This document shows, in pieces, positions 3,524 through 5,313 of a DNA stretch of 21,510 nucleotides. The first letter of the stretch is position 1, and each line of letters opens with the position of its first letter. Both the position numbers and the translations under genes were made by a program. This DNA is from Promethearchaeota archaeon. GTDB taxonomy: Archaea; Asgardarchaeota; Lokiarchaeia; Sigyniarchaeales; SOKP01. Below the pieces are notes generated by a model that was not told the origin of the DNA, searched no databases, and saw nothing but the letters and a program-made list of their open reading frames with translations. The stretch covers positions 1 through 21,510 of the forward strand of contig JBHLPW010000073.1 of assembly GCA_048939015.1 (NCBI GenBank). The letters are read 5' to 3'.

Positions 3524-4171
3524 ATGAGCAAAAAACTTACTATGACTGAAACTAATGATATAACTTTTAATGGAGAGACAAAAAGAATTTTGTTTCAATC
3601 CATGGAACTGATAATGAACAATATTAAAGCTAATATAGATCATTTAGACAAGAATTTTAAGTATACAAAAAAATTTATTGATTTAGTCCACGATGGGTTA
3701 GTTAATAATCGTAAGTTTTTCTTATTAGCATCTGGTAGAAGTGCTTTCATATTACAATGTTTTGCTACGCGTTTGGTCCATTTAGGAGCCGAAGTCCATA
3801 TAGTTACAAACTTAGCAAGCATGCCAGCATTAAGAAAGAAAGATATTTTAATTGTACTCTCAGGTTCTGGAACTACAGGTATAGTTGTTAGTTTATTAAA
3901 TAACTACGTAAATACAGTAAAGCCATATGGAATTGTCACTATTACTAGTCATCCTGAAACAGTAATTGGGAGGATAGGAGACATTACAATTAAACTTAAA
4001 GGCAGAACTAAAAGAGATCCAGCAGTAGGTGATGATGCAGTATTAGCTCCTGAAGGAACTATGTTTGAAATTGCGGCTTTTTGTTATCTAGATGCTATAA
4101 TAGCAGAATTAGCAATCAAAATGGGTAAAACAGATAAAGATTTACTCGATAAACATTCTCAAAGTACTTAA
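3524..4171 (+). CDS. hxlB: SIS-domain 6-phospho-3-hexuloisomerase-like protein
   Basis: ASGRS..I...FATRLVHLG, DILIVLSGSGTT, ITSHPET.IG and APEGTMFE motifs typical of PHI/HxlB. Confidence 0.85.
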   Translation: MSKKLTMTETNDITFNGETKRILFQSMELIMNNIKANIDHLDKNFKYTKKFIDLVHDGLVNNRKFFLLASGRSAFILQCFATRLVHLGAEVHIVTNLASMPALRKKDILIVLSGSGTTGIVVSLLNNYVNTVKPYGIVTITSHPETVIGRIGDITIKLKGRTKRDPAVGDDAVLAPEGTMFEIAAFCYLDAIIAELAIKMGKTDKDLLDKHSQST

Positions 4172-4199: not shown

Positions 4200-4234
4200 C
4201 ATCTCAAAACTTTGTACTAATTAAATGATATGAA

Positions 4235-4242
4235 TTATATAT
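4235..4242 (+). promoter_or_regulatory. TATA box for the H/ACA sRNA
   Basis: TTATATAT starts ~27 nt upstream of the hairpin 5' end, the expected archaeal spacing. Confidence 0.55.
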
Positions 4243-4261
4243 CCTATTAAATAATATTAAT

Positions 4262-4332
4262 TGTGCCCATTTATAGTGTCTCTATGAGAAAATTCTTTCA
4301 ATGATTATTGATCTCCAAATGGGCACACATAT
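4262..4332 (+). ncRNA. Archaeal single-hairpin box H/ACA pseudouridylation guide RNA, predicted target 23S rRNA helix 69 U1911 (E. coli numbering)
   Basis: Lower stem GTGCCCATTT(4263-72)/AAATGGGCAC(4317-26) followed by ACA (4327-29). K-turn: U4285.U4305, G4286.A4304, A4287.G4303, bulge AAU 4300-02, capped by GAAA/UUUC. There are 14 nt between the pocket top and ACA. Pocket arms TTATAGT and CTCC are complementary to GGAG-UA-ACUAUAA. Confidence 0.85.
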
Positions 4333-4360
4333 TATTGTAATTTTATTTAAAGCGCACACT

Positions 4361-5230
4361 TTAAATGAGTAATGCACCAAATGCTGCGCAAAATTCAGAA
4401 TTTTTCAGAAATATAGCTTTCTTATTATTAACTTTGCATATTAGGGACAATAATTTCTTCAAAATCTTATTTTCTTTTAAAAATCCTCCACAAAAGACAA
4501 TATTTGACACATCATTATTATCAGCAATTATAGTAGCGATTGTACCTAAATTTTCACCAATAAGACAAATAAAAGAATTAATGAAATCTTCTTTATTCGA
4601 TGAAGCAATATTAAACTCGCTGGTAATCTTACCCAATGAAGCAGCAGTGAATTCTCTGAATAATAAATCGACCCTATTGTCTTCCGGAGAATAAATATCA
4701 GAAACTTTTAGATCCACATTATATCTATTTCCTTTTCTTGCCAGATTTAAAGCTTCTTGGTAATCTTTCAGATTAAAAAGGGCATTTATTAAACCCATAA
4801 AAAATCCTCCCCCGAGGGCAGAACCACCTAAATGGGTATACTTATCATCATTTAATACAATTGAAGTTCCAGTACCTATGGTTACTATTAATGTCCGAGG
4901 AAGTTCTTTATTCTTTTCAATTTTATAGAGTAATTCAATCCCCTTGACATTTGCTTCGAATTCATTTACGATTTTTGTTTTAGTATCTTTTGAATATTCT
5001 TTATATAGGTTAAAACTTTTTCCTCCTGTAAAATTAAAAGACTCTACTGTAGCTTTTTTAGAATTTAGGAATTCTTCAATTTTTTGGACCCTATTTTGAG
5101 TTGGAAAAGAAAAAAAAGTCAATTCATTACTTTCAAAATAAGCAATTTTCGAAAGCGTTTGTCCCATATCAACGCCAATTCTATCTGATGGAATTTGAAG
5201 TACATTTTCGTTAATACTAATTTTTGACAT
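4361..5230 (-). CDS. Type II pantothenate kinase (Fumble/CoaW-like, ASKHA fold)
   Basis: GVDMGQTLSK, FTGG, NEFEANVKG, IGTGTS, GGSALGGG, GNRYNVDLKVSDIY, TAASLGK and FCGGF motifs. ATG 5230 preferred over GTG 5242; 289 aa. Confidence 0.88.
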   Translation of the reverse strand: MSKISINENVLQIPSDRIGVDMGQTLSKIAYFESNELTFFSFPTQNRVQKIEEFLNSKKATVESFNFTGGKSFNLYKEYSKDTKTKIVNEFEANVKGIELLYKIEKNKELPRTLIVTIGTGTSIVLNDDKYTHLGGSALGGGFFMGLINALFNLKDYQEALNLARKGNRYNVDLKVSDIYSPEDNRVDLLFREFTAASLGKITSEFNIASSNKEDFINSFICLIGENLGTIATIIADNNDVSNIVFCGGFLKENKILKKLLSLICKVNNKKAIFLKNSEFCAAFGALLI

Positions 5231-5313
5231 CCTTATTATCACTTAACTTAAAATTCAATACTTTCATTATTTTATATTATTAATTTAATATATGAATTTT
5301 GTAAAATTTTGTC

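Follow-up and report, generated by a model that had tools for sequence, protein, structure and literature searches.

A candidate single-hairpin box H/ACA guide RNA predicted to target the U1911 equivalent of 23S rRNA helix 69 in Loki-type Asgard archaea

The locus and its hairpin

The window analysed here is a 21,510-nt stretch of DNA from a Promethearchaeota archaeon of the class Lokiarchaeia. Between two of its protein genes lies an unannotated gene of about 70 nt, which extends from position 4263 to about 4332 on the + strand (Table 1). The left neighbour (3524–4171, + strand) encodes a 6-phospho-3-hexuloisomerase-like SIS protein (HxlB-like). The right neighbour (4361–5242, − strand) encodes a type II (eukaryote/Fumble-type) pantothenate kinase (PanK), with matches of 152 bits to PF03630 and of 199 bits, below the cut-off, to the NCBIfam type II PanK model. 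The two genes converge on the hairpin. Synteny of PanK with the small RNA is found in at least two genera, and the 3′ end of PanK adjoins the RNA in several genera.

Table 1. Coordinates of the hairpin and of the elements flanking it, numbered from the first base of the window.
Feature	Position	Strand	Description
BRE/TATA-like element	4230–4243	+	purine/A-rich bases, then A/T-only octamer 4235–4242
Lower stem P1, 5′ strand	4263–4272	+	G4263–U4272 with A4317–C4326, 10 bp
5′ guide arm UUAUAGU	4271–4277	+	open pocket is AUAGU 4273–4277; complementary to H69 ACUAUAA
Upper stem P2, 5′ strand	4278–4285	+	8 positions, partners 4305–4312
K-turn G(2n) A(1n), non-bulged strand	4286–4287	+	G4286·A4304, A4287·G4303
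K-turn C-stem and terminal loop	4288–4299	+	GAAA / AUUC / UUUC
K-turn bulge AAU (4300–4302) and G(1b) A(2b)	4300–4304	+	3-nt bulge, 3′ strand
Upper stem P2, 3′ strand	4305–4312	+	partners 4278–4285
3′ guide arm CUCC	4313–4316	+	complementary to H69 GGAG, E. coli 1907–1910
Lower stem P1, 3′ strand	4317–4326	+	partners 4263–4272
Box ACA	4327–4329	+	directly 3′ of P1, 14 nt past last P2 base
T-rich tract	4341–4348	+	T runs 4341–4344 and 4346–4348; possible archaeal terminator

An earlier, sequence-only reading of this DNA had described a 10-bp stem followed by ACA, a pocket, an upper stem, a K-turn, a cap and a 14-nt spacing, and every one of these parts is found in place. The pocket is an asymmetric internal loop with AUAGU opposite CUCC, and its top is separated from ACA by 14 nt (4313–4326). 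The two uridines at 4271–4272 belong both to the 5′ guide arm and to P1, where they form the top two U-A pairs. P2 consists, in order, of G4278·U4312, U-A, C-G, U×U, C×U, U-A, A-U and U4285·U4305; the two mismatches of the window copy are U-A pairs in most relatives. Above the K-turn, the C-stem is made of four pairs (G4288–A4291 with U4296–C4299) and is capped by the loop AUUC. The minimum free energy of the + strand is −20.3 kcal/mol (z = −3.35 against shuffles). Fold stability alone says little, because the − strand folds about as well (−20.8 kcal/mol).

The same reading had placed a TATA box about 27 nt upstream of the hairpin and a T-rich tract behind it. The former corresponds to the A/T-only octamer, about 21–28 nt before the first stem base, and the latter to the two T runs in Table 1. 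In most relatives, T3–T6 directly follows ACA. The upstream regions of 38 non-redundant copies have no alignable sequence in common; what they share is a run of A at −33 to −30 and a G/C-free A/T stretch at −29 to −22 from the start of the hairpin. This positional signal has the layout of an archaeal BRE/TATA promoter and probably functions as one. In G059 and G041, two genomes whose flanks are GC-rich, a TATA-like element rich in A/T stands isolated about 26 nt before the hairpin.

Conservation, strand and RNA class

By BLASTN, about 26 genomes of the same genus contain the hairpin, with identities of 73–96%. Across 20 same-genus copies, 91% of cells are paired and three pairs are changed on both sides (U-A to C-G, C-G to G-C and C-G to U-A). 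A covariance-model search of relatives, which had been proposed along with the original description, identified one copy each in 110 of 131 family genomes, spread over 10 genera, and the same model (R1) also matches one genome of a second family. In an alignment of 46 diverse copies, fitted to the model and hence favouring the structure, 89.8% of cells are paired, compared with 33–49% when the partners are slid by 1–3 columns. Compensatory changes occur in 18 of the 22 pairs of these copies, and none of 500 shuffles reaches the observed covariation. P1 accounts for nine such pairs out of 10, with 97% of cells paired, and P2 for six out of eight. The unaligned raw sequences show that the P1 sequence is swapped wholesale between lineages.

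A pattern that is independent of the stems, combining pocket, K-turn and ACA, matches 83 of the 161 class genomes, compared with 3 matches in the control. Through it, G059 and G041 are seen to carry copies too; they represent two further families, and their copies are identical in anatomy and have unrelated, GC-richer lower stems. The hairpin is thereby known from more than 110 genomes and four families in all, and a divergent copy is present in the closed same-order genome G044. Outside the class, in a sample of about 125–150 other genomes of the phylum, only chance-like matches to the model or the pattern were obtained. When the 4.86-Mb genome was scanned by target and structure, this locus alone came up; the reversed-sequence control had 0 matches.

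One outcome that would have spoken against a guide, orthologues keeping the stem and losing the rest, is the reverse of what we observe: the stem sequences change, and what is kept is the K-turn, both guide arms and, in most copies, the ACA. The AUAGU arm of the pocket is invariant (46/46 copies) and the CUCC arm is present in 44–46 of 46. Within the K-turn, the 1n A (A4287), L3 U, 1b G and 2b A are each found in 46/46 copies, as is the closing C-stem pair G4288-C4299 (−1n G, −1b C). The L2 A of the bulge is present in 45/46; position 2n (G4286) is G in 40 and A in 6 of the 46, and U in some same-genus copies. The apical stem-loop varies in length (7–23 nt) and in sequence, and it covaries. 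The invariant columns are those that an H/ACA guide needs. The box column reads ACA in 33 copies; six have AAA, one has AUA and six a triplet other than ANA. The modal spacing from P2 to ACA, 14 nt, is found in 31/46. In about one in four of the more distant copies, the spacing is 12–13 nt or the box is degenerate (ACU, GCU, AUU, ACC), so that ACA is less constrained than the pocket.

Several lineages depart from this layout. Members of genus g23 (L067–L069, L072, L073, L078) mostly carry AAA (...AAAGG) in place of ACA, followed directly by a GC-rich hairpin of the GGGAGCC...GGCUCCC type, which might act as a terminator or form a second structural element. Copies from genera g19 and g20 (L070, L071, L076, L077, L102) keep the pocket and the K-turn and have an ACU/GCU box and/or a spacing of 12–13 nt; in L070 and L071, the 3′ arm additionally contains an inserted U (CUUCC), with their own H69 unchanged. 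A further locus, L103 (G088:C21:9034-9286, minus strand 101-153), consists of a 9-bp stem followed by ACA, with a K-turn-like AAUGA and no open pocket. It resembles Sulfolobus sR666, which is pocket-less and Cbf5-bound.

Three features fix the + strand and rule out a minus-strand RNA: the kept G·U pair, the orientation of the K-turn and the scores of the model. The covariance model gives 86.8 bits on the + strand and 19.9 bits on the −, and the G·U that closes the pocket (4278/4312) stays G·U in 40 of 45 distinct sequences and is never G-C. A C/D-box RNA was ruled out, there being no D box. A pocket with the first two P2 pairs opened (6-bp stem) was also rejected: the spacing becomes 16 nt and the pairing with H69 is lost.

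At Rfam 15 gathering thresholds there is no match anywhere in the window, and the sole match at E ≤ 10 is spurious (E = 8.9, minus strand, an Enterococcus sRNA). The Rfam search that the first description had proposed thus confirms that the RNA is absent from Rfam, and no relevant paper came up in a literature search for H/ACA or snoRNA-like guides of Asgard archaea. The hairpin is a new RNA family inside a well-known kind, the archaeal box H/ACA guides, and in principle unsurprising. Both proteins on which the sequence-only reading had made its case depend are encoded in the genome: Cbf5 (with 424 bits, above the NCBIfam cut-off) and Nop10 (55 bits). The genome also encodes two L7Ae-family proteins and a Gar1-like open reading frame of 93 aa with a weak match (25.9 bits against a Pfam cut-off of 29.3). 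An H/ACA guide in an archaeon with H/ACA proteins is expected biology. An RluA/RluD-family synthase (PF00849) was not found in the assembly, which is 95% complete.

Helix 69 as the predicted target

The sole 23S fragment of the genome (G000 contig C27:40825-42947) ends at the contig end, inside helix 69 (H69), at ...GCCGGGAGUAAC. Up to its end the contig reads ...GGGAGUAAC, and relatives read GGGAGUAACUAUAAC. No 16S is assembled in the genome, and most same-genus metagenome-assembled genomes (MAGs), two single-scaffold ones included, are without 23S. The 3′ half of the cognate H69 being absent from the assembly, H69 was taken from relatives. In the complete 23S genes of three same-order genomes, H69 is GGGAGUAACUAUAACUCUC, and of the 23 family genomes that contain the region, three of them same-genus, 22 have the surrounding 30-mer without a change. 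The H69 of the lineage is GGGAG-U-A-ACUAUAA.

Against this H69, seen in full in relatives only, CUCC pairs with GGAG and UUAUAGU with ACUAUAA (E. coli 1913–1919), giving 4+7 Watson-Crick pairs and no G·U. U1911-A1912 is left unpaired as the canonical ‘UN’. Both arms can therefore pair with the lineage H69, the point on which the original proposal rested, and its guess that CUCC would best fit a eukaryote-type GGAG stem agrees with the GGAG present in this lineage. We scanned every U of the same-genus 23S and 16S (G111), and the rRNAs of G044, as possible targets. The H69 site is the unique best; the runner-up lacks any 3′-arm pairing and is not bipartite. Among shuffled pockets, 2 of 2000 have a full match, a chance of about 0.001. 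In several lineages the base after CUCC is C, and the resulting CUCCC gains one more pair, the fifth, with the additional G of GGGAG; such an extension would be meaningless unless H69 were the substrate. The predicted-substrate 13-mer GGAG-UA-ACUAUAA has one other exact occurrence in the genome (G000:C117:12592), where by our estimate about 0.6 are expected by chance in 9.7 Mb, i.e. about one.

Guides for H69 positions 1915, 1917, 1921 and 1923 were sought by a genome scan with structural filters, whose descriptors are narrow, and none stood above the control. Three structure descriptors for other H/ACA guides in the genome gave no enrichment over reversed-sequence controls; an initial pocket-only regular expression was far too loose.

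The rRNA genes of the group show some peculiarities of their own. At a contig end in a same-genus MAG (G028:C18:26-55), a variant H69, …GUAACUCUGAC…, has two differences from the family consensus and could represent a second rRNA type or contamination. The same-genus 23S L107 (G111:C35:94300-98800) contains a block of about 770 nt (locus ~284-1058) that is unaligned to the G044 23S, near query position 2720, and that may represent an intron or a large expansion segment. Where they can be aligned, the G111 and G044 23S genes are only about 70% identical.

The geometry of the predicted complex can be compared with published guides. With 14 nt between P2 and ACA, the target U is at n+15, within the rule of about 15 (±1) nt (PMC7075261, PMC2377435). 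The distal G·A pair of the K-turn is at the 10th position from the base of P2, and archaeal guides have 9–10 positions to the K-turn (Li & Ye 2006, crystal structure paper, quoted in PMC7075261). In Pyrococcus guides, an upper stem of 5–6 bp is functional and one of 7 is not (Muller et al. 2008, PMC2377435); by this count the P2 of 8 positions is long. The sequence signature of the K-turn is complete, with a core invariant in 46/46 copies and the L3 U that is usual in archaeal H/ACA K-turns (PMC7075261), and a kinked fold is predicted from it. According to Muller et al. 2008 (PMC2377435), the 3′ arm is the more important of the two, and a 4-bp arm with two G·U pairs failed in Pyrococcus. Here the 3′ arm has just 4 bp, all Watson-Crick and three of them G-C. 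The short 3′ arm, the two P2 mismatches and the long P2 are points against reading the hairpin as a guide for this site, as are the distant copies that depart in spacing or box and the archaeal literature surveyed, with H69 pseudouridines reported at 1915 and 1917 and not at 1911.

By analogy with solved archaeal H/ACA RNPs, L7Ae would bind the K-turn, and the PUA domain of Cbf5 would hold the lower stem and ACA, with Nop10 and Gar1 joining. In the assembled particle the pocket would pair with H69 of 23S, CUCC with GGAG (1907–1910) and (UU)AUAGU with ACUAU(AA) (1913–1919). U1911-A1912 would stay unpaired at the base of P2, 15 nt from ACA, and Cbf5 would then isomerise the U1911 equivalent to pseudouridine. 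Taking the structure, its covariation and the complementarity together, we suggest that the segment from 4263 to about 4332 (+) very probably encodes an archaeal box H/ACA guide sRNA that consists of one hairpin, stands alone under a BRE/TATA promoter of its own and is directed at the U1911 equivalent of H69.

Could this be a genuine H/ACA-class RNA for which U1911 of H69 is not the physiological substrate, or not the sole one? The RNA might guide modification of another RNA (tRNA, sRNA or mRNA), or act as an H69 chaperone in 50S assembly without catalysis. The shortness of the 3′ arm and the unexplained wobble at the top of the pocket fit such a role, as do the lineages that are off-rule in ACA spacing or have lost ACA and kept the pocket, since this loss is tolerable if binding, not catalysis, mattered. 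The second 13-nt match, at C117:12592, would offer another substrate, but a single match is at chance level. The pocket, moreover, does not vary across a class in which such constancy is to be expected of rRNA alone; H69 is its unique best bipartite match in rRNA, and the CUCCC extension of the arm tracks the sequence of H69. We consider a different substrate or a chaperone role unlikely.

A second possibility is that the hairpin binds protein or acts in cis without guiding anything, for example as an L7Ae-binding K-turn element or a bidirectional terminator, its match to H69 being fortuitous. Its position between the 3′ ends of two convergent genes and the nearly equal folding of the reverse strand are in favour of this reading, and pocket-less K-turn hairpins do exist (L103 in G088; Sulfolobus sR666, PMC11077068). 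A terminator, on the other hand, needs no invariant internal-loop bases, no fixed 14-nt distance to ACA and no upstream BRE/TATA element. The pocket bases are the most conserved part of the hairpin, whereas the stems drift; the G·U pairs and the K-turn make sense on the + strand only, and a fortuitous match to H69 has the low probability given by the shuffled pockets. A cis-acting or merely protein-binding hairpin is thus very improbable. That the hairpin arose by chance in AT-rich intergenic DNA, where weak hairpins are many and loose descriptors match reversed-genome controls equally often, is already refuted by its compensatory conservation in more than 110 genomes of four families and by the excess of pattern matches (83 genomes against 3 in the control).

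Known H69-modifying systems and implications

The predicted guide RNA resembles the single-hairpin archaeal H/ACA sRNAs (Pyrococcus Pf9/Pab91, Archaeoglobus Afu-46, Sulfolobus sR115 and sR435) in its lower stem of about 10 bp followed by ACA, its bipartite pseudouridylation pocket, its n+15 spacing and its probable independent promoter. It differs from known archaeal H/ACA sRNAs in that no Rfam 15 family resembles it by sequence or covariance model, from the Pyrococcus guides in its P2 of 8 positions in place of 5–6 bp, and from known single-hairpin archaeal guides in being very AT-rich and in having a different target position.

An archaeal K-turn H/ACA guide acting on H69 of 23S has a precedent in SL2 of Haloferax volcanii sR-h45, which guides the pseudouridines at 23S positions 1940 and 1942, corresponding to the loop positions 1915 and 1917 of E. 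coli (PMC7075261, PMC2584109). sR-h45 is a double hairpin, and its SL2 has atypical spacings of 17 and 19 nt, whereas the RNA described here has one hairpin and a canonical spacing. Unlike sR-h45 SL2, it has no pairing for 1915 or 1917 and would be aimed at the loop-closing U1911 equivalent. In haloarchaea, H69 carries pseudouridines at 1915 and 1917 (PMC7075261, PMC2584109). No pseudouridine at 1911 is reported for the archaea covered by the literature surveyed.

In bacteria the H69 pseudouridines at 1911, 1915 and 1917 are made by RluD, a protein-only synthase; the one at 1911 is paired with A1919 and makes the H69 stem-loop more stable (PMC3973299). The predicted product at 1911 is the same, but RluD is a stand-alone RluA-family enzyme and in the present case an RNA guide would provide the specificity. 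Eukaryotes likewise pseudouridylate H69 by RNA guidance, through a Cbf5/dyskerin RNP and, in yeast, the snoRNAs snR191, snR3 and snR84; their H/ACA guides, by contrast, have two hairpins, boxes H and ACA, and no K-turn. The H69 pseudouridines of yeast are at the equivalents of 1915, 1917, 1921 and 1923, not 1911. Vertebrate 28S carries a pseudouridine at the 1911 equivalent. The H69 stem of the lineage studied here, GGGAG/CUCUC, is the eukaryote-like version.

These comparisons allow a bolder proposal, that Loki-type Asgard archaea install the ‘bacterial/vertebrate’ loop-closing pseudouridine of H69 with an RNA guide that shares ancestry with the eukaryotic snoRNA for the corresponding 28S position. 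We regard it as unlikely; if it were true, and the likeness reflected shared ancestry and not convergence, it would provide a snoRNA lineage traceable from Asgard archaea to eukaryotes. The lineages that have kept the pocket and the K-turn and lost ACA may be natural intermediates towards ACA-less, ‘atypical’ H/ACA guides. The 46-copy alignment is a natural mutation set for the tolerance of H/ACA guides at the ACA box, in the spacing and at K-turn position 2n, and the covariance model can be used to annotate the gene in more than 100 MAGs. With none in Rfam 15 or in the literature searched, the hairpin is a concrete and well-supported candidate for an Asgard H/ACA guide. It makes a sharp prediction: a pseudouridine at the 1911 equivalent of H69, in a lineage whose H69 stem is eukaryote-like.
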